From: Amphiscolops sp. MND2022
Lineage: Eukaryota
DNA length: 64,000 nt
Assembly (NCBI GenBank): GCA_964187785.1
Contig: OZ076409.1
Coordinates: 39,930,001-39,994,000 of the forward strand
Direction of reading: 5' to 3'
The position numbers were made by a program, and so were the translations under genes. The notes beneath the pieces are model-generated. The model was not told the origin of the DNA and made no database searches. It was given only the letters and a program-made list of their open reading frames with translations. Below are positions 8,716-40,369 of the stretch, one piece after another; within the stretch, counting starts at the first letter, position 1, and each line of letters opens with the position of its first letter.

Positions 8716-11394
8716 CAGAGTTCTCAATTCCAATCCCAATTCTCAAATCCAATTCCAATTCCTGGCTGCTCAATTCTAATTACAATCAACTTCGCTACAT
8801 TCCAATTCCAATTCTAATGCTCGATTTTTGACCAAATGGAAGTGATTTTTTCATTCACCTAGTTTAATTTTCAATGATTCAAAAATTGTGTTCAAATTTT
8901 CATTGATTTATTTTTACATGCAATGTATATTGTTTGTACTGTGTTGTAGTTATAGATCTATGCTTTGGGAGGAAATGCTAATGCTAATCATACTACTGGC
9001 ATTGAAAACCAAGACGTTTTTGAATACTGCGTGAACACTTCTTCTACAAACCTTTAAAACAAGTTTTATTCGGTACAATTTATTATTGACCGGAAACCGC
9101 AGTTCGCAATAGCACTAATTGCGAGGAACTATCAAGAGCGGTAATTCTGGCACTCGGGCCATGTGGAAGCATTGCACTGCCTGTATCACGTATGAAACGA
9201 TCAGCAGATCAAAATATTTTGCCGTTTGAGACCGCGAAAAGGTGTGTCACAGAGAGAGGCTTGGATCAGGTAGCTGCGCTAGTTTATGAGGATGGCGTTT
9301 CTATAAATACTGTGGTAAAGTCGCTAACCCTCCAGAAATTTTATGCGAAGATGGGCTCTTGTAAAGTCACCTTTGGTAGTGTAAATGCCTCCCTTGAAAG
9401 GCAAAACCATTTTTTGCTAAAGATAAGAAAGGTAATAACTAAGAGAAACAATAGGCAGCTATTGTCAATGTCATTTGATGAATGGACCTCACTTGATAGA
9501 AAGAAGTTTATAGGAGTATACATCCACAGTGAGAAGGTTAAAATATCTTTGGGAATGATTAAGTACACCGGTTTTTGAGGGTCTGAAGAGATTGCTACAA
9601 ATAAGGAATTTGATATCCACATTTGGATTAATGCCTTCAGATATTTAATTTTGCACTACTGTTTGTATTGCTGATGTACAGGCCGCATTGGCTGTTGTTG
9701 GGTGGTACAACTTTCCGTGTCTTGCACATGATAAATCTAATTGTTAAAAGATTTGTGTTCTTGATTGTTGAGTCTACGGATGAAAATTAAGATTTTTCCG
9801 ATGACGATGAGGATCTAGTAGTAAACCAGTTTTCTTTTGTTGTAATTATTGCCCGACATTGTGTACGCGAAGTTCTATCAACTACGAGCTTGCAGGAGAT
9901 ATTACACGACCTGCAAGCTAGCTTGAAAGAAGAACCAGCAAAAATATTCGAAGAAAATTGTACAAGGAGGAAGTCACTGCTGATGATGTTGAATCGATTC
10001 TACAGGTTGAAGGGCTTACGGCAATAAAGTCGAATTTCGACTCGTCGATTGAATATTGTAGATAAACAACGTCGAATGAATAGCATAGAATTTACCGAAA
10101 AGATTTGAGTCGAATTCTTGTCGAATTTGGTCGAAAATAAACTTTTAGGTTTTAAAAAATATTTCAGGTACTTTTACCTATCTAATATGGGGTCATATAC
10201 TGTGTATGCACGCTCATCCGCACCATCGCGAAGACCAGCTCCCACTACGATTGCTTCGCGATCTCCATTCCCGGTAGGTCTTTGCTCCTGCTCGACCTCG
10301 CTTAGCAAGATGGGAACATAAGCGGGGCCCCAACGGGCCGCGCGGCACTAGAAGAAATTGGGCATCTCCGACGGCCAAAACATTGTTTGACTATTTTACA
10401 TTTGCATTAACATCAACGCAATTACTTCGACATAAGTCCGTCGACGATGGTACTTCGACGCTAGTTGTACGCTTCAAATTCGTCTTTAGTTGTTCGACTT
10501 TATTGCTGGACACTGGTTGAAGCATGTTCTTCGAATTATAATGTCGTTGGATATTCTGCAAGATGACTTCGATTGGAAGAATGTTGCTGAACTAATACAA
10601 ATCTTGACTTCGCTGAAGGAACTTACTACAAGTCTAGAAGGAGGTTTTGCTGACGTGTCACTTGCAATTAAGTCAATTTACTTTCTGTTCCGATTATATA
10701 GATCGCAGTCAGCTCTCTCAAATCAAATTCAGCAAATTTTTCTAAGTGCCTAATAGCAATGCTGCGGCAAATGCAAAAAATTTCCAGTGAGTTCTACGAC
10801 GCTATTAAACATTATGTTGCCTCACAGACCACAATGCGGGATCCGTCGAGTGACCATGGCTATAATGAGCGTGCTAACTTATCATTTGCTGATTTTGTAT
10901 CGCAACTTTGACCTAAGCAACTTGCAGCAAATATCCGCCGACGTTGAGTGAATCTTTTCTTTTGGGAGGATATAAAGGAACTTTCTGCAGAGACGAATAT
11001 TTGGTGTAAACCACTCCAGGAATGTATTTTTGTAGAACATTTTTCTCCTTAAGTTGATATAAACAATGTTGATAACATCATACGTTCTCTAATTTACCCA
11101 ATTTTCTGCTGCATATTTTGATTAGGTTATTTATTAACCAGTGATTATTTTCTAGTTTTGCTACATTTCTCCTGAAAACGATTGTATTCACTTGTTCTTT
11201 GATTTCAGGGCCTGTGTGGTTGTCTGGGGTCGATTTGAGCGGTTGCATGAGATTCTATGTAAAAAAGGTATGTAAGTCATGTCGGGTGAAATCAATTCCA
11301 ATTCTAATTCCCAGCAACGGAATTGATTCAATTCCAAATCCTGCTTTGAAAAATCAATTCAAACTTTTAAAAGTAGGAGTAATTGAAAACCCTG
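8716..11394 (+). mobile_element. Decayed hAT DNA transposon
   Basis: TIRs CAGAGTTCTCAATT / AATTGAAAACCCTG, subterminal CAATTC repeats, transposase motifs SFDEWTS (DxWT) and FPCLAH (CxxH). Putative 8-bp TSD is degenerate (gtatgaat/ataggatt). Confidence 0.8.
10013..10515. mobile_element. MITE nested in the hAT transposase, carrying cassette type 1 (~10185-10375)
   Basis: TIR core GCAATAAAGTCGAA / TTCGACTTTATTGC, flanking duplication GTTGAAG (10006-10012, 10516-10522), and GTCGA-rich subtermini. Confidence 0.75.
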
Positions 11395-11404
11395 ATAGGA
11401 TTGA

Positions 11405-11610
11405 TGTAAAGTATAAAACGTGCCTCGGGTATGTCTCCATTTCCTCAAGTGCCCGCGGCCCGTTGGGGTCGCTCATGTTCCCATTCACATTAACTCATGG
11501 GAATTCACATGTTCCCTTTCACATCCGCTCATGTTGGAATTCACAACAACTCAATGTTGCTACTTGGCCAAGGGAGCGAAGCCATCGAACCGTAAAACAA
11601 ATTTGCTAAG
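11405..11610 (-). repeat. Chimeric copy of the structured cassette (type 1 half joined to type 2 half)
   Basis: 11405-11485 is the reverse complement of ~15385-15470. 11551-11608 matches ~39761-39818. Confidence 0.8.
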
Positions 11611-14600
11611 TATCTTGTAACATTTTTCGTTTGTTTTTGTTTTTGAATATTTCGGGTAAAAATCACTTCAGTTTTGATCTTGAATAAGTTGCTTTTAGTC
11701 CTTGCTCGAGTTAGAATGGACTTGGCTTGATTTGGTGGTCATTTGGATTAAATTGCAAGCCAAATGATTCGACGAAAAATATAAATTACTTCAAGCCAAG
11801 TGGCTCGTTGCCTAATTGTTGTGATAGGCTTGTTGAATAGCTTCAGAGATGGCAATGATTTGAATTTGAGACAACTGGACAACATCTCTGACGCTGTTTT
11901 GTTGGTTTGTCGCTGCTTTTGGGCTGAAAGAACCATCACAACCCGGTGAGATAATTCCATTTTTATTTCATTTTAACAATTCAAGGTTTTGTTCTATATA
12001 CGGATTGCTTCACTGTTGTGATTGTTTTTTTGGGGAGATTGGCACACACACAAATGTGGTAGTCCTGCAATTGGTTAGGTTTCGAGGTTGAGTTGTGATG
12101 AAAAACAACGAAGCCTGCAACGCTTCGAAGTGTCTGAAGCCCTCAGGGTTGATAGACTGGCTAAATTGTAGGCTTTGCAACGGATGGGGTCACATAAAAT
12201 GCGCCAATTTATCAAGAACTGAAGCCCGGAGTTTTGCCAAATTTAAATGTAGTAGGTGCTCTTTAGTGAACACAATCCCTCAGTGTCAGGATGATAACTT
12301 TAGACCAGACACCCTTTTTAATTCAGGCGTTGTTCATTTGAAAAGAGTTCCCAAAAATTTACGGATATCCCTAGCTGAAAATTGATATTCAAAATTATTG
12401 ATTTTTGTGGAACCCCGTCAAATATTGCCTAGTGTTGCTGACTGCTCTCCTGTCTAAGCTTTTTTTGGAAAAACCACCTCAAGGAGGTAAAGGTAAGCGG
12501 TCATCACTTAGTGCAATTATCAACAAGCTTGTTCGAGATGGTGTCATTGAGAAAAAACCGAAACGCGACAGAAAACCGCAGCAGAAAAGCGAGTTAGATC
12601 GACGACTGCGTTCCATTTGCACTAAATTAGACGAAGGTAATGTTAAGGCCGGAATCAGAGTGGCAGTAGGCGACGACAAGATTGCAGATTTTACCGTCAA
12701 CAACTACGCTGCCCTTAAGCTGAAACATCCGCAGAGGGAAACTTGCTCTGTTCCGGACCCCACCGATATCGATTGATTTTTAACCTCGGGGTTTTTCGTC
12801 CACAAGGCTCTCATGTCCTTCCCCAACGGCTCTAGTGCAGGGTTGGATGGCATTTTGCCTCAAATTTTGAAAAATTTGGCTGCCAAGTAGAAAGCGCAAA
12901 CTGGGCTGAATTTTCTCAGCGCCTTAAAAAATCTTGTGAATGTGATTCTCGGAGGAAAAGTACCTTTCGAACTTCGGCCGTACTTCTTTGGTGCGAAACT
13001 AATTGCGGTAAAAAAGCCCGACGGAGGACTTCGTCCTATCGCCATGGGCAAAACTTTCCGCCGATTGTCTGCAAAATGTGCCGGATACCATTTCTTCGAA
13101 TCACGTCAAGCTAGATATGGAAATCGACAAATAGTTGTAGGCACCAAAAGGGGCGCTGAATTGGCCTCACATGTTTTCCGTTGTTTGATAGAAAGCCCTC
13201 AGCCCAAAGAAAACGTAATTTTGAAAATTGACTTTGAAAACGCTTTCAATTCGATAAACCGGCAATTCATGCTAGAGAAAGTTTTTGAAATACACCCTGA
13301 AGTTTATAAGTATTCACACTCGGCGTACAGTCAGCCACGTTTTCTGTTTTACGGTGATTCAGTAATCAAATGTTGTGAAGGGACCCAGCAAGGAGATCCT
13401 GAGTCTCCAGCTTTGTTTTCGGATTCCATTCAGGATTTGATTGACAGTTTGGAGTCGAAAATAAACTTATGGTACCTAGACGATGGAAATTTAAGTGATG
13501 ATTACCGAACCGTTTTGAAAGATCTCAAAAAAATTGTTGAAGCTGAAAGAATGCTGGGACTCAAACTTAAACCCACGAAATGTTAAATTTTTTTCCCTGG
13601 TAACATCACTGAAAAACGACGATCGACAATTTCAGCATCTTCCCAAAAACGTTGCCCTGGGATCAAAACACCAAAGAAAGATGAACTCATCATTGTTGGT
13701 TCACCGCTCGGCCCGAAATCACAAGCAGACTTATTGGAAAAGACTATTAATGAACTGGAAAAAGTTAACGGGATTATTGAAAAACTAGATGCGCACTATG
13801 GTTTTTTCATGTTAAAAATTGCTTCAGTGTGCCAAAGTTGTTGTATTTCCCGAGAACCAGTTCATGTTTCAATCATCCAGCTCTCTTGGAGAATTATGAC
13901 AAAGCCGTGCGCGACGGGCTTTCCAAAGTGTGTAATGTGAACTTCGACGATATTTTGAGTACTCAGCTGGCTCTGCCTGCTGAGTTGGGTGGTCTTGGGG
14001 TTTCATCCGCGTCATTATTAGCACTTCCCGCCTTTTTGGCCTCAGCTTTTGGTGCGAGTGACTTTCTCACGACGATTTTCTCGGAAACATTCGAAGATGT
14101 TTCGTTTACAAAAGCGCTTGAGAAATGTTTCAGTTTGACGAATGAACAGGAAAGTCCTCTGGATGGAACCCAGAAAAATTGGACACAACCTGTCTTCGTC
14201 AAAACCGCCCAAGATTTGATTTCTAGAATGGATGACAAACGTTCGAAAATTTTCAACTCTCATCAAGGTAAATTCGGGCCTCATTGGCTGAACGTCGTTC
14301 CTTGCAAGAACTTAGGCCTGATACTTGCTGATCAGCAACCTCGAATTTCAATTGGTTTGCGTCTCGGTGCCAACATCTGTGTTGCGCATACGTGCCACTG
14401 TGGTAAAAGAGTTGAATGGGACGGTTTACACGGACTTTCTTGCACCAAGAGTGCTGGTCGCTTCTCACGTCATGCTACTCTCAACTCTCTCATAAAGCAG
14501 ACGTTGGGATCTCCCGACTGGAGTGTACGCCATTGATCTAATTGCTGCGGGTCTAATGGAATTAGATCTAACTGTTAGGTCTAACTTTCAGATCTAGTTT

Positions 14601-14620
14601 TATCTAAAGTACTTGGGTCT

Positions 14621-15788
14621 GGGTGACTGTAAATAGGTCGAATTGTTTTGGTCGAAAGGACAGAGGTCGAACCTTTTGATCGAATTGCAAGAATCGAATG
14701 GAATGCGGTCGAATTTTATCGTGTTTGTTGTATGGATTGGTCGCTTCGCTCCCTTCGTCAAGTAGCACCATTGAAGCATGGCAATATGGCACGTCGCTCT
14801 GCTTCGCTTCGCTCCTGCATTCAGGGCACTAGAGGTATGTGAACATATCTGACTACGTTATAAAAATTTCGATCCGAGTTGTTTTGATCCCATTCAAAAC
14901 TTGGTATGTCGACCTGAGGACTAACTCTGATTTTCGATCCCGTTCCTTCGACCTATTTTCGCCGGCGGGCGGGAATAACGTCTAAGGAATAACGTCTAAA
15001 TTGAAAACGGGAATAACGCCTAAATTTAAATCATTTTTCGGGAATAACGTCTAAAGTTTTAGACGTTATTCCCGTTTTTTTAGACGTTATTCCCGTTTTT
15101 TAGACGTTTTTCCTGTTTTGAAAGTTGAACTTTCTGAAATCAAAAAAAATTTTTCTGAATATTTTCACAACAAATTGCACAAAAATGGGTCCTGGCAAGT
15201 GTATCATTGTCTACGGTACCCTTAATTCGAACAACAACAATTCATAGTTATTTATTTTTTCCCACATATTGTGGGGGCGTATTCGGTGTATGCACGCTCG
15301 CCCTCACCGTCGCAAAGACCAGCTCACACTACGATCGCTTCGCGATCTCCGTTCCCGCTAGGTCTTTGCTCCTGTTCGACCTCGCTTAGCAATATGGGAA
15401 CATAAGCGGCCCCAAGGGGCCGCGGGGCACTAGAGGAAATGGGGACATATCCGAGACATGTTTTATACTTTGAATCACTTCATAGCATCAGATCCTAATT
15501 GACCTGAATTTTTTCAATTTTAGACGTTATTCCCGTTTTTCGGACGTATTTTGACAATTTTTCTGTATTTTAGTTGTTTTTCAGTAATTAAGACGTTATT
15601 CGCGTTTTCAGGTTTAGACGTTATTCCTCTTTTTAGACGTTATTCCTCAGTTTAGACGTTATTCCCGTTTTTTTAGAAGTTATTCCCTAATATTTCAATT
15701 TAGATGTTATTCCTTTAGACGTTTTTCCCGGTGGACCTTTAGACGTTATTCCTTAGACGTTATTCCCTCCTCTAATTTTCGCCCACCC
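14621..15788. mobile_element. Mutator-type MITE B (same family as 18208-18558) carrying cassette type 2
   Basis: TIR GGGTG..GTAAATAGGTCGA; 9-bp TSD cttgggtct/cttaggtct. The right TIR is split by element C. Confidence 0.88.
14964..15774. mobile_element. Mutator/foldback-type MITE C with GGAATAACGTCTAA subterminal arrays, carrying cassette type 1 (~15270-15470)
   Basis: ~37-bp TIRs, exact 9-bp TSD attttcgcc (14955-14963, 15775-15783), many TTAGACGTTATTCC repeats. Confidence 0.9.
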
Positions 15789-15985
15789 CTTAGGTCTAAC
15801 CCCTTTATGATCCAATATGTGTTCTGAAAGCGAAAATATAATGTGGGGCATATGCGATCTCCGTTCTCGCTAGGTCTTTGCTCCTGTTCGACCTCGCCTA
15901 GCAAGATGGGAAAATAGGCGGCCCCAAGGGGCCGCGGGGCACTGGAGGAAATGGGGACATATCCGAGGCACGTATCACTTTTTAG

Positions 15986-17802
15986 GAGAAATGGTCATTT
16001 CGCCTAATGCCATTTCGCCTAAAGTCATTTCGCCTAACGTGTTTGGTCACTTCGCCTAATTTTTTTAGGCGAAACGTCTTTTACTTTTTACAGACGGGTT
16101 AGGTGCAGGGCTGTGGTGGTATCAATAACTCATTGTTTGCTGTTTTTCAGATATGGTAAAATGTCGCAATACGAGCCTTATTTCGAAGAGTATGTGCCGT
16201 CATCGGATAGTGAAAGCGACCGGTCATTCGAATTATTGCCGAGGCCACTACATTCTCAGCGAAATATTGTTGAAGAATTGGACTTACCCGATCCTATCCT
16301 TGATATTTCGAACATTGAAAATGCCGACCCAGCCCCAATTACATTTGAGTTCATATCAAATGGTACTAGCAAGGGTAAGACAATGGTCTCATCCTCCCAT
16401 GGGTACACTTATGTGAAGGCAAATACGGTCAAACAAACAACGTATTGGCAATGTTCGAAGCGAAATACCATGAAGGGATGTCGATGTCCGGCTACGGTAC
16501 GATCTAAAGATGGGGGTTTTACTGCGGGGAAAAAATCGCACAATCATCCGGCTGATTTCTCCGACAAACCAAAGCGACTTGTATATCGAGATGCAAAGCG
16601 AGAAGGACTGAGCGATTTATACAAGCCTGCCCAGTCTATTGCGGAAAAAATTTTATCACCAGTCTTCGTAAATGACGTTAATAACAGCCCCAACATTCCA
16701 TTGCCAAAAAACATTGCCCGCGCTACCAACCGACAGCGACAGCAACAACGACCAACAGAGCCAGTGGATTTATCGTTTACAATTGACGATGCAAGTGTCG
16801 AGGGATTTTTACGAGCCGATGTCAAATGTGGAGAGAATCGACATTTAATTTTTGCAACGAACACGCAGTTATTTCATCTGGCAGAGGCACGCCGATGGTA
16901 TGGTGATGGAACCTTTAAAGTTATTAAAGTCCCGTTTGTGCAACTATACAGTTTTCATGCTTTTATCAAGAAAGGTGATGCGACAAAACAGGTACCCCTT
17001 GCGTATATTTTTATGTCTGGTAAGCGAAAGGGTGTTCTTTCCATTTAAATCAAGCTGTTTATAAAAAGATTCAAGAGTTAGGCCTTGAAACGCTTTACGT
17101 CAATGATAATTCCATTCAATATTTTTGCAAAAAGCTAATGTCTCTATGTTACATCCCAACAACCCACGTTGAATTATCGTTCGCATCGCTAAAATCCCGA
17201 GCATCGGAGATTCCTATGTTAAAATCGCTCTGTGTGTATTACGAAAACACGTGGTTGAAAAGTAAGATTTGGTCCATCGACGAAACTAATGTTTATATGC
17301 AGCCTGTGAGAACCAACAATGACGTCGAGGGATGGCACGCGCGTCTCAATCGAAAAGCAGGTCGGCATAGTTTACAGTTTTATCTGCTCATCAAATTGCC
17401 TAAAGAAGAATCGGTCTCCGTCGATCTGACAATTGCGCTCGTTTCAAGAGGTCATGTTTTACGATCCCAGCGTCAATTAAATAACTCTGTTGCAAAGTTA
17501 ATTGAACAATGGCAAGAGTACCGAGATGGTAATATCAGTTCGACATCGTTACATGATACACTTTCTACGCTTACATAATTTGTTTGCTATATAACAATGA
17601 CTTAACTCTGTTAATCTATACCTTTATACATTCCTCTGTTAACACATTCCTCGGTTCTCATTAAAATTTCAATTTCATACACTTGTTTTTATGTTAATAT
17701 AGTTTGGTTTTTGACTTTGGTCATTTCGCCTAATTTTTTTTAGGCGAAATGACTCAACTAAATTTTTAGGCGAAATGGCATTAGGCGAAATGACCTGCAT
17801 CC
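15986..17802 (+). mobile_element. MULE (Mutator) transposon D with FLYWCH-MULE transposase
   Basis: TIRs GGTCATTTCGCCTAATGCCATTTCGCCTAAA; TSD ctttttag (15978-15985, 17803-17810). Confidence 0.92.
16161..17578 (+). pseudogene. FLYWCH-MULE transposase with an internal deletion/frameshift near 17029
   Basis: FLYWCH (YTY..YWQC..CPA..HNH), WYGDGTF, GCSFH and RTNNDVEGWH are present. The segment that normally carries the second catalytic Asp between GKRK and GCxFH is absent and the frame shifts there. Confidence 0.87.
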
Positions 17803-18207
17803 CTTTTTAGTTTTAGATCCTAATTGACTAATTTTTTTCTCAAATTAGATCAAATTAGAAGAGATTTTTAGACCTGATTTTTTATATCAATTTATTTAGA
17901 TCTCAGTTTTGCCCCCTCTCTTAGATCTATTTAATTAGACCTGATTCCACGTACCTCTCTCGACTTGCCTTCAATGCTCGAACCGCGAGGACTGTGCCGA
18001 ACTGATGGCAAACGCCCATACGGTGTTACCATGTTTTCTTGGGAAATGGGTAAACAGCTGGTGTGGGATGTCACGGTTGTGGAAGCTCTTGCACCCAGTC
18101 GCCTGAATCAAGGCTCTTTATGCAACCCGGGAACCACTGCCACCGAGGCTGAAGCGCGTAAAATTGAGAAGCATCGCGAATTAATAGACAAGGGATACAT
18201 TTTTCAG

Positions 18208-18558
18208 GGGTGGCTGTAAATAGGTCGATTTTTTCTGGTCGAAAGGACAGAGGTCGAACCTTTTGATCGAATTGCAGAGATCGAATGGAATGCGGTCGAA
18301 TTTTATCGTATTTGTTGTATGGCTCGGTCGCTTCGCTCCCTTCGCCAAGTAGCAACATTGAGGCATGGCCATAATGGCACGTCGCTCCGCTTCGCTTCGC
18401 TCCTGCATTTAGGGCACTAGGGGTATGTGAACATATCTGACTACGTTATAAAAATTTCGATCCGAGTTGTTTCGATCCCATTCAAAAATCAGAGTATGTC
18501 GACCTGAGGACTAACTCTGATTTTCGATCCCGTTACTTCGACCTATTTCCGCCCACCC
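18208..18558. mobile_element. Mutator-type MITE (family B), uninterrupted, carrying cassette type 2
   Basis: 21-bp imperfect TIRs and exact 9-bp TSD atttttcag. Removing it restores GYIFQ|PVALEVQG of the CRE endonuclease. Confidence 0.95.
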
Positions 18559-19804
18559 ATTTTTCAGCCGGTGGCCTTGGAAGTACAGGGTTCTTTAGGC
18601 GAGAGCAGTGAAATTTTCATCACGCGTCTCTGTAAAATGCTCTGTCGTTCGCACGACGATCAACGAGCTGGCAGCTTTTTGAAGCAACTGATTTCAATGG
18701 CTCTTCAGATTCGCAATGCGGCCTGTGTTCTAGGAACTGTGAGCGACAGAGATGCGTTCGAAGAAATTTATTACATATAGCGTAATTTTTTTGACGTTTA
18801 TATCATAGCAGCTTTAAAAAAATTTCTACCGGTCGACTGCTTAGTGGCTGGTTTGAGTAGTCTGTTGGTTGTTTTTTTTGGTACTGGTATAGTGGCTGGT
18901 ATGGGGTCCCCTACTTTCGTTGCAGACCACGGGTGTGTGTCTTTTCCCCCCAACATGGTGATACACATGGCACTTGATTGATGACGAAGATCCATGATAT
19001 CTGATAGAGGAAAAAATCATAAAGAAGAGAAAAAGAAAAAAGTAAATAAAAGGAAAAAAGTGGCTCGTGACCGATTTTTCCGGTTCAAAAATATGAGCTT
19101 GAAAATAATTGGCCCGAGAACCTTGTACTGTGGTTGAACGGTGGGTTCCGTTCGATCACCCTTTTTCGAGAATCTCGGTTCGGCACGAATATTGCTGTGT
19201 CAAACATCCTGATACGAACACTGACTGGGGACGTTGAATCCACCAACACTTGAATACAGAAGACAACTTGGCAGAGTGGTATAAGTTTATATTTTTCTCA
19301 ACGACCTCTATGACTTCACAGCTATACGTGATCGTTTCGACCGTAGCGATACAGAAACGAGAAACTGTCAATTTAAAACTTAACAAGAATCGGACTCCGG
19401 ATTCACTTCTTTAATGTTTCCGCCATTGGCGACTGGCCCTCGCTTCCAGAATCAGTAGTATGGTGTGAAAATGTCACTCTATCCAAAGCAAGGGTTTATA
19501 AATATTGGGCCTCTGAAGTTTTCACCACTGAGTTCCTCGACTGAAAATAGACTGCAGAAGAAAAAGCTAATCGTCAGAGACCCAATGATCATAAGATGAT
19601 TGTTCAATGGAGAATTTGAGTTTGACCGACTCTTCGTGTCACTGTCACGACGAGTCGAAATCGGCACGGCACGTAAGACTGTTTTCTAAATGAAAGTGAC
19701 TTGCCTCCTGCAACCTTTTATTTTCACTACATTTTAACATTCTCTGTCTTCGTTAAGTTTTACCTCCAGCTAAATTAGTTCTTCCCTGGAAAGAAATCGG
19801 ATGA

Positions 19805-22359
<2,555 letters not shown>

Positions 22360-25300: not shown

Positions 25301-25577
25301 GGTCAAAGAGTAAATTTTGAAAAGTTTCTTAACGGCCGCAATTCGACCATTTTCCCTTCACTTTTTCTTCTTTTTCTGTATCAACATGCGAAGATGATTT
25401 ACAAGGAGTGCGTCTAACAAGCAGACCAGTCAAATAGCATAGAAACATTATGCGTACCGATGAACAGACTCGATTCCTATTGGTTGAAATTCCAGATTAG
25501 AACTAAATAATTGCGTCAGATTAGCAGTCAATAAAATTATTATTATAACGTAGTCAGCTATGTTCACATACCCCTAG

Positions 25578-28500: not shown

Positions 28501-28771
28501 TTAGAATTTTCTTACATAGGTTTAGTTGGTGGCGGCCGTCTTATTGCATTAATACGTTGTGCGGCCGCTTCATAGCAGCTAAGAATGGTTATTTTGGTTG
28601 TCCGCGGAACTAGAGACGATATTATTGACATTAAATAATAGTGCGAGGTACTTGAAGTACTTAGTGTAATCTTTACTTTTATACGATATCACCCCGTAAA
28701 ATCTACCTTGCTGATGAACTAAAATTTAATAAACACCAAATCATGAGCGAAAAGTAAAAAAAAATCCTACA
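25578..28771 (-). repeat. 3' LTR (3194 bp)
   Basis: Near-identical to 36592-39701 and preceded on the minus strand by the PPT. Confidence 0.97.
26159..26361. repeat. 29/30-bp tandem repeat x7 within the LTR (x4 at ~37173-37287)
   Basis: Unit CCGTGTATTATCAGCCCACTTAGGCT(C/TA)AA with no spacers. Confidence 0.97.
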
Positions 28772-28782
28772 TTCCCCCCCAC
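28772..28782 (-). promoter_or_regulatory. Polypurine tract GTGGGGGGGAA
   Basis: Abuts the start of the 3' LTR on the minus strand. Confidence 0.9.
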
Positions 28783-30289: not shown

Positions 30290-33200
30290 TTATTTTGGCT
30301 TTACCACGTACTCGTCTATGCCGAAGCGCACTGGCGGTCGACGATTCCGTGTCGTTTCTATCATCAGCGAATCTGGATGTTCGCTTTCGTTGTCCTCATC
30401 TGAAGAAGGCGGGGTATTTCTACTCTCGTTTATTTCTGCATAAACAGGAAATGAAGACTCCTCTGACGGTGCGGGGACGTCTATATACAACGGGCAATTA
30501 GTCAGAGTAGTCTCTTCGTCGTTTTCGGCGCTTATCACGCGGGGAACGTCATGAAATGACACGTGCGGCCGGTTTTTATTGGCTTGGATTTCCGCCGAAG
30601 TAGGGCGGAACACATGATACGGTCTATTTTCGGTTTTTTGATCGGATGAATCAGATTCATCCTCGATTTCTTCATAACTCGGTAGCGTCTTTGTCGCCAC
30701 TCGTTCGGATCGTTTCGGGAGGGATTCGCCAAAATACGGTTTAAGACGATTAAAATGGATATTCTGCCACTTTTCCGGGCAACCTGGCTTGCAAATCTGA
30801 TAGTTCACTTCACTTGTCTGACTCAATACTTCGTATGGACCGTGCCAAGGGAGATGGAACTTTCGGGATTTCGCTTTGTGTGGCTCGAATAACCACACTC
30901 GGTCTCCTGTTTTAAAACTTTTTCCATGGACCTTTTTCTGATAATAATCCTTCTGACGACGTTGTTCTTTCCCCATGGTCAGTTGCGCATGACTATGTAC
31001 TTCGAATAGTTTATCACTCAACTCGGCTCCTACCTCACCTAATTCTAAACGGGGGTCGCCAGGAGGTTTCGGATAGAATAAGTCGATCGGATATTGTGCT
31101 TCTCTCCCGTACAACATCGAAAACGGGGTCGTACCGAGGGTCTTATGTACGGTGGTATTGTACACAAAATTTACGTGGGGCAAGTAGAGATCCCACTCCT
31201 GCGGTTTTTCGGCGCAATACTTAGAAATAGTATCGGCAATCACTCTATTGAATCTTTCTACTTGACCATTTCCTTGGGGATGATACGGAGAAGTCCTAGT
31301 TTTATCGATCATGAAAACTTGGCAAATATCTTTCATTACTTCGCTGTTGAAGTTAGTTCCTTGATCCGTATGTAAAGTATCGGGAGCTCCAAATTTCAAA
31401 ATCCACTCTTCGACTAAAGTCGTGGCCACCGTCTTAGCCGTCATGTCTTTCAAAGGAACGGCAACCGCATACTTTGTATACAAATCGGATATAACTAAAA
31501 TGTATCGCGCCTGTGACTTTTTCGCTAGCGTTACGGGTCCCAAGATATCTGCTGCAACAATACGAAACGGCGCCTTTGCTTCGATTGTTTGCAAATGAGC
31601 TTTTCGACCTTTTCCCGCCGTTGATCTAGCCGCGCAACGCGTGCATTTTGCAATATACTTTTCTACACTTGACCTGAGACCAGGCCACCAAAATCTCTGT
31701 TTAATCCTTGATAACGTTTTCTCGGCTGCAAAATGACCTCCGCTCAGAGGGGAGTCATGTAACTGATATAACACTTCGGCTCTCATAGTCGAAGGAACGA
31801 CTGCCTGCCATATTTCACGTTCACGATTGCTAGGTTTCCATTTTCGATAAAGGACTCGATTGGCCAGCGCTAGCTGATCCCAATTACTCCAAAGTTCTAA
31901 CGCCTCTGGACAACTCCATTCTAATGCTACTTCTCTGGGGATGGGGTTGGGCCCTAAATCTTCCAATGTACCATCTATCCGAATTCCACGTCTAACCATT
32001 TCACGGAATAGTACTCCCGTACTACGATCCATTCTCTGACCATACGCTAGGTCGCTATCCGATCTAGTCCATGAGATATGCCCCCCCACTTGCTCTGATA
32101 CTAACATTTCTTCAGGGGTAACGACGGAACAGGCGGAATCTACACTTGATGAACGCGGGGTACCTCGTCTTGCCGAAGTCGAAGGGTACAATTGCTCTTG
32201 GTCTCTCGGTGTATACACGGAGATCGTAAAATACGAATCTTGAAACACAACCTCTAGACAAATAGCTACATTCACCCACTCTAATTCGTCATCGACGCAA
32301 CCTATTCTAGGCATTGCAAGTTTGGAAATTCCATGGGAGCTAGCATGTTCTTTCACTTTCAATAGACTTTCTTTTAGTACATCGTATTTAGCAACTTCTC
32401 CGTTACAATGCTTGGTGATCAATATGTACACATAACGTCCCTTTTCAACATCTTGGTACACTAGGAAACCTCCAACACGATTTACCGACTCTGCGAGAGG
32501 TGGTAGATACGAATACGTTTTCACGAACGATTTCATGGGAGCAGTGGCTACTCTCATGTCGGCAGATACACACAAAACTAAGGAATCGGGGGATTCGAAA
32601 AAATCCCCTTCTCGATAACGGACTACTTCTCTAGGTGGGTGAGAAATTTGCATTTTCAAATGTCGAGCTACATCCTCTGAGTTTTCCAATTTCTCACGAG
32701 CTTTGGTTCGGGCGGCTCGAAGATCGCGTTCGGCTTCAAACAAAGCACTATCAAATTCGGTGAATTCGGGAATCGGTCCTCTTAACGCATCTTCTTCGCC
32801 GGGCAGCCATTGGGGTACGTCATTCGGTCGTCGACTAAGACCGTCCGCATTACAATGTTTATCCCCTGGACCATGTACTATTTGATAGTCATACTCCTGA
32901 AGTTTCTGAACCATTCGAAAAGTCATTCCATCCGCATTTTGCCTAAACAACCATTGAAGACTTGCATGATCTGTGCGAATAATACATTTGGATCCGTAAA
33001 TGTACGGTCTGAACCACTGGACGGCTTGAACTACACCTAGCGCTTCTCTTTTGGCTGTTGCATAATTTACCTCCGTTTTAGTTAGAACTCGCGACTCAAA
33101 GGCAATTGGATACTCTATCCCATCGATCACTTGAGACAAAACTGCGCCGAGCGCCGTATCACTAGCATCGGTATCAATAATGAACGGAAGTTCAAAATTT

Positions 33201-35116
33201 GGAAATGCCAAAATTGGAGCTTCTAACAATCTTTTCTTCAGCGTTCGGAACGCTTTGTCATGTTCTTCGGTCCATGTGAATTTTAATCCTTTGCTCGTCA
33301 ACAGATAAAGGGGCCTAGCCACTTCCGCGAAGTTTTGGACAAACTTCCGATAATAGTTGCAGAAGGCAACAAATGAGCGAACTCCGGTGACGTCGGTCGG
33401 AGGCTCCCATTCGCGTACTGCCGCTAACTTTTTCGGATCCGGTTGGATCCCTTCCTTGTTAATCACATGACCTAGATAGTGGACCTCGGTGCGGAATAAG
33501 TTGCATTTCTTCGGTTTAAGACGTAAACCGGCTTTGCGCAAAACTATAAACACCTTTTCTAAATGCTCCAAATGTTCTTCTGGAGTTTTGCTAAACGTTA
33601 GCACATCATCTAGGAATATGAGCACATGTTTATACAGATCTTCTTTAAAAATGTCGTTCATGTTCCTTTGGAAAGTTGGCGGGGCGTTCGTTAAGCCAAA
33701 CGGCATCTTCAAACACTCATATAACCCTCCATCCGGAGTACAAAATGCCGTTTTGTGCCGGTCTTCGGCCGCGACTGGAATCTGCCAATAGCCACTTGCT
33801 AAATCGAGAGACGAGAAGACTCCCGCCCCTTGCAGTGCATCAATCGTTTGACCGATCCGGGGCAACGGATACGCGTCCTTTACGGTAAGGTCGTTCAACT
33901 TTCGGTAATCTATACACATTCGGTTTGAGCCATCTTTCTTAGGTACCATTACTATGGGACTACTGAAAGGACTTTTACTCGGTACGATCACTCCTTTCTC
34001 AAGCATCTCGCGAATTTCTTCACGAACGGCTTCTAATTTATGCGGAGCAATTTTGTAGGGCGAAATTTTGAACGGTTTCGCATCGCCTATGTCTATGCGG
34101 TGTTCTACTCCTACAGCGGTTCCTAACGGGTCTGAAGGCAGTGAAAACACATCTCTGTAATCACGAATCAAATCTCGCAATTTTTCCTTTATTTCGGCGT
34201 TCTCGAGTCCAGGGGTGGCTAAATTTAAAATTTCGTCCACTTCCTGTTCGAGTTTTTCGTTTATTTCGGAGGCCGCTGATACTGTGTCAGGACCGGGTAC
34301 CGTTTCGCAAACAAATGCGTCATCTTCCGGCGGGGGAACATGACCGCTTAGGACTTGCATGGGTACTTTGATGATGAAACCATCATCTTTGGGGATCGTT
34401 AGTTTCTGTTCGACTAAGTCAGTCGAGCATTGATTTTCCATCATGAACTTTAAGCCAATCATGATCTCAGGGTAGAGATCTTCTACAACCACGAATTCAT
34501 CGGAAGCAACGCACGTTCCGATTTTAACTTGTGCTTTTACGATACCTTTGGTAGGCATCTCGTTGGCTATTGGGCCTGTTAAACGACTGGGATTGGGAGC
34601 TATTGGATTACCAATAGTCTTAGCCAATTCCAAACTCATCAAACTTCTACTGGCACCAGTGTCTATCATGGCCCAACAGCGTAGGCTTTCGACTTCATAG
34701 GGAATTAAAAGCGTGGCCCCTGGAATGTATTGATTATGGGTAAGTTTTCTCGATTTTACCTCATCAGACCGGGCCTGATTTGGAAATTCGGGCTCTTTCT
34801 TGGACAAAATTTTCACAGAGCCAGGCTCAGCTTGGTTATCCTCAAAAAGATTTTGTATTGGGGGACTATTTACAACAAGGGTATGGGATTCTTTTGGAAA
34901 AAAGCCTCCCGGGCCAAACTCGTCACACATTTGTTTCCAAGTTTCGGGGTCGATCCGCCTACTGCGATTGCGCTGTCGCAAACGGCTATCATTACTCCTA
35001 GACCTAGAACGAACACGCTGACTTGTTTGCGGAAAATTTGTAGCAGCTGGAGATGGGATGGAATCCCAAGCGCGAGTAGAGCCTGCTACTGCATACTCGG
35101 CTGTCGGTAGTTTAAA
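30290..35116 (-). CDS. pol: Pol polyprotein (protease, RT, RNase H, TARG1/OARD1-like macrodomain, integrase with GPY motif), in the -1 frame relative to gag
   Basis: IDTGAS, FLDD, DTDASD..ADGLSR, macrodomain at ~32207-32630, HHCC, DILGP/DQG/VERFN, WHGPY. The frame is open from the slippery site to the stop. Confidence 0.97.
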   Translation of the reverse strand, partial: FKLPTAEYAVAGSTRAWDSIPSPAATNFPQTSQRVRSRSRSNDSRLRQRNRSRRIDPETWKQMCDEFGPGGFFPKESHTLVVNSPPIQNLFEDNQAEPGSVKILSKKEPEFPNQARSDEVKSRKLTHNQYIPGATLLIPYEVESLRCWAMIDTGASRSLMSLELAKTIGNPIAPNPSRLTGPIANEMPTKGIVKAQVKIGTCVASDEFVVVEDLYPEIMIGLKFMMENQCSTDLVEQKLTIPKDDGFIIKVPMQVLSGHVPPPEDDAFVCETVPGPDTVSAASEINEKLEQEVDEILNLATPGLENAEIKEKLRDLIRDYRDVFSLPSDPLGTAVGVEHRIDIGDAKPFKISPYKIAPHKLEAVREEIREMLEKGVIVPSKSPFSSPIVMVPKKDGSNRMCIDYRKLNDLTVKDAYPLPRIGQTIDALQGAGVFSSLDLASGYWQIPVAAEDRHKTAFCTPDGGLYECLKMPFGLTNAPPTFQRNMNDIFKEDLYKHVLIFLDDVLTFSKTPEEHLEHLEKVFIVLRKAGLRLKPKKCNLFRTEVHYLGHVINKEGIQPDPKKLAAVREWEPPTDVTGVRSFVAFCNYYRKFVQNFAEVARPLYLLTSKGLKFTWTEEHDKAFRTLKKRLLEAPILAFPNFELPFIIDTDASDTALGAVLSQVIDGIEYPIAFESRVLTKTEVNYATAKREALGVVQAVQWFRPYIYGSKCIIRTDHASLQWLFRQNADGMTFRMVQKLQEYDYQIVHGPGDKHCNADGLSRRPNDVPQWLPGEEDALRGPIPEFTEFDSALFEAERDLRAARTKAREKLENSEDVARHLKMQISHPPREVVRYREGDFFESPDSLVLCVSADMRVATAPMKSFVKTYSYLPPLAESVNRVGGFLVYQDVEKGRYVYILITKHCNGEVAKYDVLKESLLKVKEHASSHGISKLAMPRIGCVDDELEWVNVAICLEVVFQDSYFTISVYTPRDQEQLYPSTSARRGTPRSSSVDSACSVVTPEEMLVSEQVGGHISWTRSDSDLAYGQRMDRSTGVLFREMVRRGIRIDGTLEDLGPNPIPREVALEWSCPEALELWSNWDQLALANRVLYRKWKPSNREREIWQAVVPSTMRAEVLYQLHDSPLSGGHFAAEKTLSRIKQRFWWPGLRSSVEKYIAKCTRCAARSTAGKGRKAHLQTIEAKAPFRIVAADILGPVTLAKKSQARYILVISDLYTKYAVAVPLKDMTAKTVATTLVEEWILKFGAPDTLHTDQGTNFNSEVMKDICQVFMIDKTRTSPYHPQGNGQVERFNRVIADTISKYCAEKPQEWDLYLPHVNFVYNTTVHKTLGTTPFSMLYGREAQYPIDLFYPKPPGDPRLELGEVGAELSDKLFEVHSHAQLTMGKEQRRQKDYYQKKVHGKSFKTGDRVWLFEPHKAKSRKFHLPWHGPYEVLSQTSEVNYQICKPGCPEKWQNIHFNRLKPYFGESLPKRSERVATKTLPSYEEIEDESDSSDQKTENRPYHVFRPTSAEIQANKNRPHVSFHDVPRVISAENDEETTLTNCPLYIDVPAPSEESSFPVYAEINESRNTPPSSDEDNESEHPDSLMIETTRNRRPPVRFGIDEYVVKPK
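35070..35116 (-). promoter_or_regulatory. -1 ribosomal frameshift signal (U UUA AAC plus downstream stem)
   Basis: Heptamer at 35110-35116 is in the correct gag phase. The -1 frame is open into pol. Downstream CGAGTA...TACTCG can pair. Confidence 0.85.
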
Positions 35117-36480
35117 GAATTAGACTGCGGAAGACTTGGACATTGCTTAGCGTAGTGACCTATCGCCTTACAATTAAAACATTCCGCTTCTTCGGGGGGA
35201 GGGTGCGAAACATTTAGCTGACCCGACGATCCTGCCCTATTTAGAGGCGCGCGATAGTTAGGATTGAGAGGGGCTTGAAAACGGGGAGCTTGCCAACTCT
35301 GAGGCTGCCCACCAACCGGCCTTTGCGAACTTCCTAACGCTCCTACGATCGCAGATGACATGTCTTTCATACCCTGCACTAGGATTTCGTTTTGTCTGGT
35401 CATCATTTCGACTTGTTTCGAGGAACTTTGTTCTAAGTTTTTCGTTATTTGATCGGTTTGCTTGGATATCTGCTGGCAGATGGAATTTTCGAATCGATCA
35501 AAGCGACTTGCCACATTGGTTAAAGATGTTTGAAGGGCGGCAAATTTTTCTTCGATTTGGTTGTTACTCGAATAGCCAGCTCTCACTAGATCGGGATCCT
35601 CATATTCGTCATACGAATAGCGCAATTTATCAAGTTTCCGCTCTCTTTTTGATTCATGAGTCTTGTGGATTATTTCGAGTTCCTGTGCTCGTTGCAAAGT
35701 TTCCCCGAAATCACGGTCACGCTCGTCTTCATACAGACTAAGTTGTATTCGCGAATCAAAAAGCCCTTCAATAAATTGATCTCTCATATCGCGTTCTCTT
35801 TCCCGGAGCGATTTTTCAGGAAAGGCTATATCAGCGAGTTGACGTACTCTTCTCGAGTAGTCTCTAAGGTCTTCATTTTCCCACTGTTTAGCTGCTTTAA
35901 ATTCCGACCGCGTAGCTCGCTGGCTGCGATATTGCTGCATTTTGGGTTTCAAAATTTCAAGTAGTTCATCAAAACGTGGGGGATAAGAACCGGGTTCTTT
36001 TTCAATATATCTTTTGGGGACAGTTTCAAATTCTTCAATAGCCCAAGATGTTAAACAAGTAGGTATTGCAGCAATTTTTTGACTATCATTCCACCCATTG
36101 GCTTTGGCAACTGCTTTGAAGTGTTTTACCCAATTTTCCCAGCGGTTGTAATCTTTGCTGGGGAACTTTTCTGGTTTTATTGGCGATTTTTCGTACAGGG
36201 GTTTTTGTCTTTTTCTAGATTCATTTTCAAGGACCATGGAGTCGTCAGAATCTAGGTCTGCTTCAATTTTGAATCTTTTAACTTCTTTTTCCATTTCTTT
36301 CAATCGCCGATAAGCATCTCTTTTACACTCCTTTTCCGCGTCGGCCAATCCTACGAAGGAAATTTTAGTGGACTTACTGAGGAGTGGCTTACTACCACCT
36401 GTGACGGGAGTATGGGTGCCGTTGGGATCTTCTTGGGTGACGGGGGAGATCTGCTGATCGTTGTCGTCGTCTCCAGACAT
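35086..36480 (-). CDS. gag: Gag (464 aa) with CCHC zinc knuckle
   Basis: Capsid-like region (W..HF..VA.AN.W, DQFIEGL) and CFNCKAIGHYAKQC; lies between the PBS and pol. Confidence 0.95.
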   Translation of the reverse strand: MSGDDDNDQQISPVTQEDPNGTHTPVTGGSKPLLSKSTKISFVGLADAEKECKRDAYRRLKEMEKEVKRFKIEADLDSDDSMVLENESRKRQKPLYEKSPIKPEKFPSKDYNRWENWVKHFKAVAKANGWNDSQKIAAIPTCLTSWAIEEFETVPKRYIEKEPGSYPPRFDELLEILKPKMQQYRSQRATRSEFKAAKQWENEDLRDYSRRVRQLADIAFPEKSLRERERDMRDQFIEGLFDSRIQLSLYEDERDRDFGETLQRAQELEIIHKTHESKRERKLDKLRYSYDEYEDPDLVRAGYSSNNQIEEKFAALQTSLTNVASRFDRFENSICQQISKQTDQITKNLEQSSSKQVEMMTRQNEILVQGMKDMSSAIVGALGSSQRPVGGQPQSWQAPRFQAPLNPNYRAPLNRAGSSGQLNVSHPPPEEAECFNCKAIGHYAKQCPSLPQSNSLNYRQPSMQ

Positions 36481-36572
36481 CGTTGAAAGGGTTCAGCAAC
36501 TCACAAGGGGTGAAGGGAAGGCAAGGGAAAGAAGTAAGCAAAGAAAGAGGAAATAACAAAGACGCAAAGAAA

Positions 36573-36590
36573 GCCCACCCAGGAGCGCCA
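36573..36590 (-). promoter_or_regulatory. Primer-binding site TGGCGCTCCTGGGTGGGC, tRNA-Asn-like
   Basis: Begins one base after the 5' LTR. Its complement GCCCACCCAGGAGCGCCA resembles the 3' end of metazoan tRNA-Asn(GUU). Confidence 0.8.
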
Positions 36591-36591
36591 A

Positions 36592-39500
36592 TGTAAGATT
36601 TTTAGTTTTCCAGTAGCTTTAACTATTTGTTGAGAATAGCTCCACTACAACTCAATTAAACCCGTAGGTACCATGCACGAGACAAGGACTGGCTGAGTAT
36701 CTACATAAATTTTTATTAACTCCGAAGAAGAGACGAATCAACTTAATCGAAGGCGGTGGGGGTAAGTGTGACAAGGAAATCACGATCTTTACAACTTTGC
36801 TATTTTTCCCTCTTTCAGGGGTTTGTCTCGCTACTCTTAGGCTGTTAAAAATTATCTTTCCGCTGATGAAAAGAAGCAGGTTGAACTTTAATTACTATAC
36901 ATCAAATAAATAAGTCGAGTAATAGACACAAATACAATTTCACATCCACGAATAATAGAATGAATAATATGATAACATCGATAATAGCGGAGAATATTAC
37001 TGAGTATTTTAGCAGGCATATTAGGAGGCATATAACACAAGAGAACAGTAAACAAGAATTTCAGCAAGGTTAAGTTTTTTTTGTATCCGTAAGGATGGGG
37101 GTGATATCGAAGATATCGGAAGAATCAACTCGCCGCAAAATCTCTATCGGTCTTGGAGTGAAAAACAATAATCCGTGTATTATCAGCCCACTTAGGCTTA
37201 AACCGTGTATTATCAGCCCACTTAGGCTCAACCGTGTATTATCAGCCCACTTAGGCTCAACAGTGTATTATCAGCCCACTCAGGCTCTTTTACATGTAAT
37301 ACGATAGACCAGCAGTCCACCCTACTCCCGGGTCGAAATCCGTACTAGCGAAAAGCGGGGTAGCAACAAATCAGGCAACTTCAGGTTGTTAGGCTGAAGG
37401 CACGGGCTAACCGGCCAGACGAAGTAAATCTGCAATTTCGATAGTCCGGCGTCTGATGCGGGATGCTATCGGACGCAAAGCAGCAAACCGTTCTCTAGAT
37501 TTCAACTCACTTTGTGTGTCGCAAAAATGGCGCACACTTCGGCCCAAGTTACTTTTTCGGCAGTTTAGTCATATCATTATTCATAGTTCATCATCTTTCC
37601 TTTTTCGGGTTCTGACTAAGTGTTGAGCAATACAGTTTTTTCCTACTTCGGTACTGAAAGTTCATTAGAAGTACTTTTTCTCAGCACGAGTCGGTCCTAG
37701 TTCCACCTCCTTGTCAATCATGACTGATGGTTTTACTTCGTTTTCAATAGAATTTAAGGGGTGGTGCTACTGACTCAGTGTTTCCCACTTTTGTAAGCAC
37801 GACTTGAACTTCGGCATACTGATTGACATTTGCACTATTTGCCAGGTCTCTTTTTCTCACGCGGTTCCTGACAACTCTCTTCAACTAAAAATGGCTGAAG
37901 GAAACAATTTTCTACAATTTACAATGACCGAAAAGGCGATTTCAATTCATATCAAAAAAAGTCGATTTTCGTGTTACAACTTCTAAGGGCAAAAACAAGG
38001 TGTTCCGATCACGGGTAGCAAAAACCAAGTACACCATTCAAAAGTACAATTCAAGGGCTACAAAAGCTTACTCCATGGTTTTCTTTCTATTTCAACTCCT
38101 TCACAGTGAAAAACGCCTTTAAAGTTTGGAAGTCAAAAATCACCCATCGGTTTTCACGCAAATCTCAACTTTGGAGTGCTAGTACTCAGTCAATTTGAAA
38201 GATACAGGCTGGGGGCTTATATACATCGTTAGCCCAAGCCATGAGGAGTATTTTGCACTTTAGATGAGGTCTCTATCTTTTCTCAACAAAATTTGATAGT
38301 ACTTTTTCTGAAAGTAGTCATTTTCCCGGTTTTTATGTCTGGACTTTCAACTTTGGAGGTCAATATCTCGAAACCAGGGCATTGTTCGGAAAAACGCTTC
38401 TGCTAAACGCTGTGCGCCTGGGTCTTGTGCGTCTACCCTGAAAGTTTCAGCTCGATATTGCCCAAAACGTGCGGGGGGGGGGTTAGCATTTTGGTAGGTC
38501 GACATGCCTATCGGCAGAGAGAAATCACCACTTTAAATTCTTTGGGGTTCTTCGCTAGCGCACCGCAGCACTCTATTTATTATTCTATTCACTCCTCCAC
38601 TTCAATTCTCAAGTACGCTGTGAAGGGGGCGGCTATTGTGCGCTTACACGTTGAGTACTAAGCGATAACATGCGAAAAACGGCTTTTTAGGCCATTTTAG
38701 GGCTGTTTTTAACGTTTGCTGGCTCAGTTCTCAAAAACTACTGAATATTATTTATTTTCCAATTAACACAAGTTAGGGCATCCATTTATCTTTAATTTAA
38801 GCCATATCCGAACATTTTCTGGCAACTGTAGCGATCACACGAAATTTTTAAAGGAAACTCAATTTTGGAAAATCGTCAAAATTTTATATGCACTTATTTT
38901 CAAAGCTTCCCCCCGATATGTTCCCGGGGTCGCACAACGCTCATACTCTCAACTTAAGCTTTCCTTTGGATGGGCTGTCGAATGCTGAAAACCGTTTGTT
39001 GATATCTTTTTCCAACTTCGAGAAATCGCGTTTTGATTTTTAGTTTGCATTAATAGAGGGGGTAATTCCAAAGTGTGCGGCGGCCGTTTTCTTATTAGCT
39101 ACGCGTACAGCCACTCACAGCACGTTCTAATTTTCATTCCTTTCGCTTTCTGCCACGCGTAGCTGAGTTGTATTCTATGCTGTTCACGCACACAGCGGAG
39201 TTTTCACTCTCGCCTACCCTCAAACACATGTATTAACATAGTAATTTGACTAAATTTCTATTCACAGTATTTTATGACTTCTAATGCTTTTTCTGTGGAA
39301 ATTCGTTACTGAAAAGTTCCTAAATGTTTACTCAACACGTAGTCAGGTCAGAAAGGAACATTTTGGTGGTTTAATTTTTCTTATATTCGCAATAGGTATC
39401 GAGAAAATCAATGTTAAAGTTTCGTTCCGATTAGAATTTTCTTACATAGGTTTAGGTGGTGGCGGCCGTCTTACTGCATTAATACGTTGTGCGGCCGCTT

Positions 39501-39701
39501 CATAGCAGCTAAGAATGGTTATTTTGGTTGTCCGCGGAACTAGAGACGATATTATTGACATTAAATAATAGTGCGAGGTACTTGAAGTACTTAGTGTAAT
39601 CTTTACTTTTATACGATATCACCCCGTAAAATCTACCTTGCTGATGAACTAAAATTTAATAAACACCAAATCATGAGCGAAAAGTAAAAAAAAATCCTAC
39701 A
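36592..39701 (-). repeat. 5' LTR (3110 bp)
   Basis: Near-identical to 25578-28771. Confidence 0.97.
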
Positions 39702-40369
39702 CCTAGTGCCCTAAATGCAGGAGCGAAGCGAAGCGGAGCGACGTGCCATATGGCCATGCTTCAATGTTGCTACTTGGCGAAGAGAGCGAAGCGACCGAGC
39801 CATACAACAAATATGCTAACCTCTTCAAATAAATCAAGTTTCACATATTGGCTGTAACAGCACTCCTTTCATTGATTTGTGATTCTAAATTCCGATTGGT
39901 CAAACAATGAAGTTTTGATTAAATTGTCTGCTTTTTGAGTAGTCTGCTTATTAAACGGTCTGCTTGTTAGACTACTTCCGATTTACAAGCAGTCCAAAAG
40001 GAGCGAGCCTTTTGTAAAGAGTGGCCCTTCTGATGGAGAATGGATTTTCTAGAACCTTGTAACCTGATCGAGTGATCAAATCTTCGACAACTTTTCAAAG
40101 TTCATAGTATAACATTCTCGTCTTCATCATTTTAGTTTCTACAAACTTCACAGAAACCCATTTAGTCTCGCTTTCACTAGACTTACGTAGAACGAATTCC
40201 TGGAGAACCGCAAATACCTATTTTTGGGAGGATTTGTTGGGTGCAGGGAGAAAAAGAGAGGTCATAAGCAACCTTCAGCTAGGTAGCCCAAATGCTTAGA
40301 TTCAACAAACTTTGAAAGCTAACATGGAGTTTGATTTTTGTGATGATATATAGTATTTTTCAAAAGTGT

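Follow-up and report, generated by a model that had tools for sequence, protein, structure and literature searches.

The MITEs analyzed here are one clan of non-autonomous Foldback-type Mutator (Muta1/Phantom-like) elements, and a shared core is present in all six bounded non-coding carriers (6/6), which span five families. Judged from a near-identical core between non-alignable arms and from a mosaic core, the core appears to have been exchanged between families. The reading favored in this study, at slightly less than an even chance, is that the clan has an exchangeable core, which would be passed on by capture or recombination and kept since it probably aids mobilization in cis.

The window, meaning the whole stretch of DNA that was analyzed, is a 64-kb piece of contig OZ076409.1 of Amphiscolops sp. 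MND2022 (positions 39,930,001-39,994,000, assembly GCA_964187785.1). It is eukaryotic, repeat-rich DNA. The module is known from seven core copies within this one window.

Carriers and nested elements

The carriers, the coding MULE, and the Gypsy element are as follows.

10013-10514, + strand: carrier H, MULE-type MITE of 502 bp with GTCGAA arrays; perfect 8-bp TSD
14520-17956, + strand: carrier A, MULE-type MITE with GTCTAA/ATCTAA arrays; 9-bp TSD with one mismatch
14621-15788, + strand: carrier B1, with GGTCGAA arrays, nested in the left arm of A; 9-bp TSD with one mismatch
14964-15774, + strand: carrier C, 811 bp, with GGAATAACGTCTAA arrays, near the right end of B1; perfect 9-bp TSD
15986-17802, + strand: FLYWCH/MULE transposon, inside A, whose coding sequence occupies two frames; 8-bp TSD
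18208-18558, + strand: carrier B2, 351 bp, within a non-LTR retroelement; perfect 9-bp TSD
25405-25577, - strand: carrier G, piece 1, an arm plus the 3' end of the type-2 core (25543-25577)
25578-39701, - strand: Gypsy element with pol domains, splitting G at CCTAG in the shared 3' motif; 5-bp duplication
39707-39979, - strand: carrier G, piece 2, the rest of the type-2 core (39707-39815) plus an arm

Nesting is frequent in this region: A contains B1 and the coding MULE, and B1 contains C. Carrier A, whose insertion site is the non-LTR retroelement that also holds B2, measures ~435 bp after removal of B1, C, and the coding MULE, and B1 measures 348 bp once C is removed. Carrier G taken whole (25405-39979) has a perfect 9-bp TSD and 19/25 end identity. 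The Gypsy element that splits it has LTRs that are 99.1-99.4% identical and lies outside the module. The two ends of H are identical at 17/25 bases, with the arm word at base 17 at both ends. H is located within a decayed hAT-like element; the hAT label of this host has no Pfam support, and the element gave an Atlas feature match to ZBED1-like clusters (0.94). The coding MULE lies in A, immediately 3' of the core of that carrier. Its FLYWCH domain was detected at E 8.8e-9, its relatives carry PF10551, and no core was found in it by nhmmer.

The carriers belong to one clan

The TSD is 8-9 bp in all six bounded carriers (8 bp in H; 9 bp in A, B1, B2, C, and G); four are perfect, and two (A and B1) have one mismatch. 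The word G[TC]C[TG]AA or ATCTAA, which was defined once the ends had been inspected, begins at base 17 in 11/14 ends, both ends of the coding MULE included, against a background of 0.0023 per position. The exceptions are the left end of B2, which has a one-base variant, and G, which has the word at base 8. For the end comparison, the right end of B1 was rebuilt across the C insertion. Over the first 22 bases, cross-family ends are identical at a mean of 10.5 positions, compared with 5.7 for random pairs, and 42 of 80 cross-family end pairs reach at least 11/22 (1.5% under the null). The ends of the coding MULE share the same register with the ends of H, A, B, and C at 11-13/22 identity; G is the most distant. 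The initial annotation had described the ends of the carriers as unrelated. This description is wrong, because TSD size, word register, and end identity are common to the carriers.

Both arms of the carriers bear inward-facing word arrays. The word spacing is 13-15 bp in the left arm of B2, 15 bp in the coding MULE, and 16 bp in G, and overall it is mostly 11-16 bp or multiples thereof. Despite the related ends, the arms are mostly unalignable between families. A TIR/TSD scan of the window, whose 72 mostly chance pairs were judged by eye, revealed no further clan member without a core.

These features are consistent with known MULEs. In the excerpted text of PMC6446971, MULE TSDs are 8-11 bp long and FLYWCH is given for the Phantom group. 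Muta1 is described in an excerpt of PMC5225508 as having an 8-9-bp TSD and 12-bp repeats with 3-4-bp spacers. The Muta1/Muta5 derivatives of Aedes aegypti resemble the carriers in the 8-9-bp TSD and in subterminal repeats placed ~15 bp apart (PMC5225508, same excerpt). Similarly, Muta1/Muta5 and Phantom (PMC5225508 and PMC6446971, as excerpted) have many short non-coding derivatives and a zinc-finger MULE partner, like the carriers. The named relatives of the MULE protein of the window are from invertebrate animals (crustaceans, molluscs, cnidarians, and rotifers), at 29-51% identity; no relative was found in the viral collection.

Core copies and shared motifs

The cores were located by blastn and nhmmer over the window.

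10194-10383, + strand: type-1 core of H, with a diverged 3' end; 89.7% to the C core over 174 bp (nhmmer)
11413-11605, - strand: copy X, a mosaic core with a type-2 5' part, a unique repetitive middle, and a type-1 3' part
14720-14864, + strand: type-2 core of B1 (blastn, nhmmer)
15278-15466, + strand: full type-1 core of C, with three hairpins (blastn, nhmmer, folding)
15836-15977, + strand: type-1 core of A, with the 5' part deleted; 93.3% to C over 120 bp (nhmmer)
18307-18452, + strand: type-2 core of B2 (blastn, nhmmer)
39815-39707 plus 25577-25543, - strand: type-2 core of G, in two pieces split by the Gypsy element (blastn, nhmmer)

The shared core is real, and the observation of the initial annotation is partly confirmed overall. 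Its type-1 sites (in H, C, and A) and its type-2 sites (in the B family and in the Gypsy-split G copy) were all recovered. Its list held six of the copies; the seventh, mosaic X, and a motif shared at the 5' end were absent from it.

The core is 145-190 bp long and GC-rich, with a GC content of 0.48-0.57 vs 0.27-0.45 in the arms. A 3' motif is common to both core types. Its degenerate pattern, which was derived from these same core copies, matches five places in the window with 0.00 expected (0/100 shuffles). The end motif reported earlier has a degenerate form in H, A, and G. The second motif, at the 5' end, ends in TGTATG and is likewise common to both types. Direct similarity between type 1 and type 2 is weak: three of nine cross-type pairs beat all 100 shuffles. 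The middles of type 1, type 2, and X are completely different, and the core edges are ragged when the two types are compared, with no 5' boundary common across types.

By alignment, copy X is the best link between the two types. Its 5' part matches the type-2 core of B2 over 53 bp at 88.7% identity, and its 3' part matches the type-1 core of C over 72 bp at 88.9% identity. Copy X sits just beyond the presumed right-hand end of the hAT-like element, and TIR/TSD scans gave no convincing pair of carrier ends for it.

GCGAAGC occurs 14 times in the window vs 4.9 expected. As had been claimed, it is repeated on one strand: 12 of the 14 copies are inside cores, all on one relative strand.

Apparent exchange of the core between families

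The strongest contrast between core and arms was found in B2 and G. Their cores are identical at 140/145 bases (97%), whereas the scores of their arms were reached by 25/200 and 27/200 shuffles. The similarity ends sharply at both core junctions, and both junctions are at TTA-like sequence. By comparison, B1 differs from B2 evenly, with 93-94% identity in arms and core alike, so it is just a copy of greater age. The word used in the arms does not go together with the type of core. H and B both have GTCGAA and differ in core type; H, A, and C are all type 1, though A and C use GTCTAA/ATCTAA.

The initial annotation had named descent of all carriers from one ancestral element as a finding that would count against it. 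In part this applies, since the carriers form one MULE clan, but the B/G pair, with a 97% core and arms at the shuffle level, together with mosaic X, indicates that plain descent from one ancestor is insufficient. The A/C pair tells otherwise: A and C are alignable for ~50 bp past the core (z 4.5), which fits plain descent with remodelled arms.

The core had been placed in the middle of its elements, and this position is borne out in all six bounded carriers, where the left arm makes up 0.48-0.58 of the total arm length. If insertion were uniform, five families would be placed within 0.08 of the center with P about 1e-4. The central position excludes random nesting; yet it is expected for any filler between equal arms.

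Structure and composition of the core

Only the C core folds better than shuffles on both strands and with both RNA and DNA parameters (z -1.9 to -2.3); for the A core this was seen on one strand, under RNA parameters (z -2.2). The type-2 cores fold no better than shuffles (z -0.04 to +2.45). The term structured, which the cassette had been given, is thus apt for type 1, where one copy reaches a z of about -2.3, and not for type 2, and the three hairpins named with it are confined to type 1. Among three close sequences only, 0/41 pairs were compensatory.

Over the seven cores, C-GNA-G mini-hairpins with a stem of at least 2 bp occur 18 times on one strand and never on the other, and each type-2 core has four or five of them vs about 0.2 expected; these counts come from core copies that are not independent of each other. 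In DNA, GNA loops have unusual stability, for which folding programs may give no credit. The words of type 2 overlap, so that a repeated site for a protein on double-stranded DNA is an equally good reading of them. A 10-bp dinucleotide periodicity of the nucleosome type was found in none of the seven cores (p 0.57-0.96). The CpG observed/expected ratio of the window is 1.05, without CpG depletion, and this makes it unlikely that the core serves to escape silencing by DNA methylation. C also contains a candidate p53-like word, picked out by eye.

Rolling-circle and small-RNA readings of the core

One branch of the initial annotation proposed that the core is a rolling-circle-like parasite. An independent Helitron/Helentron-like parasite that aims at the center of MULE MITEs would explain the sharp B2/G junctions at TTA-like sequence, the GC hairpin shortly before CTAG in type 1, and the strand bias of the mini-hairpins, as expected for a single-strand substrate. 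Helitrons and HINE/DINE-1, as defined in an excerpt of PMC4067079, are similar to the core in a GC hairpin near CTAG (type 1 only), in being short and non-coding, and in having no TSD of their own; the core lacks their defining terminal features. A canonical Helitron starts with TC, ends at the 3' side in CTRR before a T, having inserted between A and T, and carries a palindrome of 16-20 nt ~11 bp from that end; Helentrons/HINEs insert at TT and have subterminal inverted repeats of 11-15 bp. The CTAG is internal, with at least 30 shared bases beyond it; it reads CTTG in X, and the next base is A or G in 7/7 copies and never T. The hairpin before CTAG has 18 nt in C and A, is imperfect in H and X, and is absent in type 2. 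Subterminal inverted repeats, searched as 11-mers with at most one mismatch and at least 25 bases apart (for X, with 10 flanking bases on one side), were found in 0/7 cores. The boundaries are ragged and the ends differ between types, no clearly free core and no empty carrier was seen in the window, and no Rep/helicase domain was present in the nine ORFs scanned. With the central placement of five families also arguing against random insertion, such a parasite is improbable. Under the definitions in the excerpted PMC4067079, a canonical Helitron is ruled against by the internal CTAG without a following T (0/7), and a Helentron/HINE by the lack of the 11-bp inverted repeat in all seven cores.

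Another reading is that MITEs captured a headless SINE, or what is left of some other small RNA, in the way that MER6 captured the V domain. This is very unlikely. The precedent is a conserved ~120-bp domain that spread by riding in a MITE (PMC6887750, as excerpted), the core is of comparable size, and the fold of one type-1 copy is modestly good. Against it, no core has an Rfam match (the six weak hits in the window are all elsewhere) and ARAGORN found no tRNA in the cores, so that a tRNA-, 5S-, or 7SL-derived head was not found, although a very decayed one could escape these searches; no A-rich or simple-repeat tail was seen. One 13-base V-domain motif, with up to three mismatches, is not in the cores; its eight matches elsewhere compare with 12 expected. 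The V domain of MER6 was one capture from a known SINE according to the same excerpt of PMC6887750, while the core is in several families, and neither a SINE source nor the V motif was found for it.

A proposed cis-aiding module or a neutral passenger

In the favored model, each carrier would be built of two arms of transposase-binding words ~15 bp apart, flanking a 145-190-bp core without mobility of its own. The core would pass between families when an ectopic copy serves as the template for mending the gap left by MULE excision; alternatively, a MITE could nest in another MITE and the inner arms then be lost. Gap repair is a general route of capture by MULEs. The cores may recombine with each other via their shared end motifs, as in mosaic X. 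Core-bearing versions would probably be favored through cis help in mobilization, with the core most likely acting as a protein-bound or easily bent center that draws the arms together; what is recognized may be the GNA mini-hairpins of the one strand. The cis module, which the initial annotation gave as its other branch, is a plausible candidate. A cis benefit is possible because all six bounded non-coding carriers bear the core, the core is GC-rich, and the GNA words stand at 18:0. Speaking against it are the coding MULE without a core and the lack of periodicity, compensatory pairs, and a type-2 fold. Exchange and benefit together are also questioned, because the A/C pair fits plain descent and only three of nine cross-type pairs beat shuffles.

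A more specific form of the cis-aiding module would make the core a sequence-specific enhancer of transposition that is portable and works as a hinge at the center, pairing the arms of any short MULE. We consider this unlikely. Recognition of the hinge would then, with the same low probability, be through GNA mini-hairpins on one strand or through a host protein, and the core would be, no more probably, a selfish module that ranks one level beneath the MITE and crosses families differing in transposase specificity.

A neutral passenger has nearly the same probability as the cis-aiding module, though it is somewhat improbable taken alone. New families of the clan would be built from old ones, and the core would be functionless filler of a founding, abundant family; by an equally doubtful route, the arm arrays would turn over by slippage, or nesting would supply new arms. 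The related carrier ends, the A/C similarity past the core, the ragged boundaries, the middles that are free to change, and the lack of covariation or a global fold are all consistent with such filler, and MULE derivatives take up arbitrary filler in the excerpt of PMC5225508. However, the same filler is found in five of the five families in the window, while Muta1 derivatives have heterogeneous interiors in that excerpt (PMC5225508). Neutral filler must also account for the persistence of the two end motifs in types that otherwise cannot be aligned, and for the strand distribution of the GNA mini-hairpins.

Comparison with known systems and significance

The Aedes MULE derivatives have shared arms and heterogeneous interiors (PMC5225508, as excerpted). 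Here the reverse was found: the interior is shared and the arms are unalignable. The carriers can be summed up as MULE MITEs of the Foldback type whose conserved interior appears exchangeable. In the titles, abstract openings, and excerpts covered, which left out most subscription journals and Repbase, no account was found of a core shared by MULE MITEs with different arms.

The mobility of mPing rises with internal GC-rich sequence; a role proposed for internal nucleosomes is to draw the two ends close, and no internal sequence common to the elements is given in the excerpt of PMC9921582. The internal regions of mPing/Ost35 and the core are alike as GC-rich non-coding DNA able to raise mobility in cis, which for the core is only proposed. 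In the excerpted PMC9921582 the effects are not tied to a shared sequence, whereas here one sequence family recurs. The Brassicaceae MITEs with E2F sites (PMC5950925, citing Henaff 2014, in excerpt) are similar to the carriers in that different families share one internal motif; that motif is a short site, compared with a 145-190-bp module with no factor identified here. A possible half match to the E2F motif of this excerpt (PMC5950925) was seen by eye in the type-2 core. The strong gyrase site of phage Mu (PMC10052514, as excerpted) offers a functional analogy only, as a central cis site aiding end pairing. There is no homology, Mu is 38 kb long vs 0.35-0.8 kb for the carriers, and the function is shown in Mu and proposed here (PMC10052514).

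The exact 3' motif pattern had 0 matches in the viral, metagenome, and prokaryote collections, and the exact type-2 motif pattern had 0 matches in the prokaryote and viral collections, all of which hold little animal DNA. An nhmmer search of 80 metagenome loci that carry MULE relatives at 31-53% (304,705 bases in all) gave no match to a core (best E 0.37).

The success of MITEs is usually credited to their ends and size, and the interiors are regarded as filler. A natural interior that outlasts its ends provides a defined sequence for testing selection on interiors. If the core is an enhancer, it could improve MULE vectors, and it would be a eukaryotic counterpart of the central gyrase site of Mu. 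In either case, clustering repeat libraries by similarity of the interiors will lump together families that different transposases move.

Three of the five insertions in or beside the elements (Gypsy, MULE, and hAT-like) are within ~25 bp of the 3' motif, with a hand-estimated P of about 0.01 for a feature chosen post hoc. As a weak lead, this clustering could be a mark of open chromatin beside a bound protein.

Host gene and base composition

Between its stacks of transposons the window showed a single host gene, which reads like an ARF GTPase, a tentative name. The CpG observed/expected ratio of the whole window is 1.05; germ-line CpG methylation has left no sign in it, despite the very high repeat load.

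Features of the window outside the core, the shared interior of the MULE-type MITEs
4441-4638 and 5258-5455: inverted repeat with arms of 198 bp (98% complementarity) that are separated by 619 bp
8716-11394: hAT-like transposon, decayed; its subterminal words are of the AATTCC type
about 12000-18780: non-LTR retroelement (RVT_1), host of the MITEs A, B1, C and B2 and of the FLYWCH/MULE coding transposon
about 19998-22340: intron-containing gene between transposon stacks
25578-39701: young Gypsy with very long LTRs (~3.1 kb, 99% identity)
40370-42618 and 46207-48455: direct repeat, 2249 bp, 99.9%
49994-50072: isolated hairpin, perfect 39-bp stem, 1-nt loop
51883-52670: stretch with a tandem array, 4 units of 173 bp, preceded by a T run
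52655-52666: perfect 12-bp palindrome, after the 173-bp units

Transposable elements and structured repeats

The LTRs of the Gypsy contain a 29-bp tandem array, and a relative of this element (72-77%) lies further downstream at 53240-62477. The 2249-bp direct repeat probably represents the LTRs of a further, very young element. The 173-bp array with its palindrome looks like a HINE/Helentron-type element and has no sequence in common with the core. The isolated hairpin gave only sub-threshold matches to miRNA models, and no TSD was found at the 198-bp inverted repeat. The hAT-like transposon had no match in Pfam; in the Atlas feature-match resource it matched ZBED1-like clusters. The non-LTR retroelement belongs to an abundant family with many relatives at 80-95%. 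At 11395-11425, 15966-15985 and 25573-25577, three unrelated transposons have inserted no more than about 25 bp from the core's shared 3' motif.
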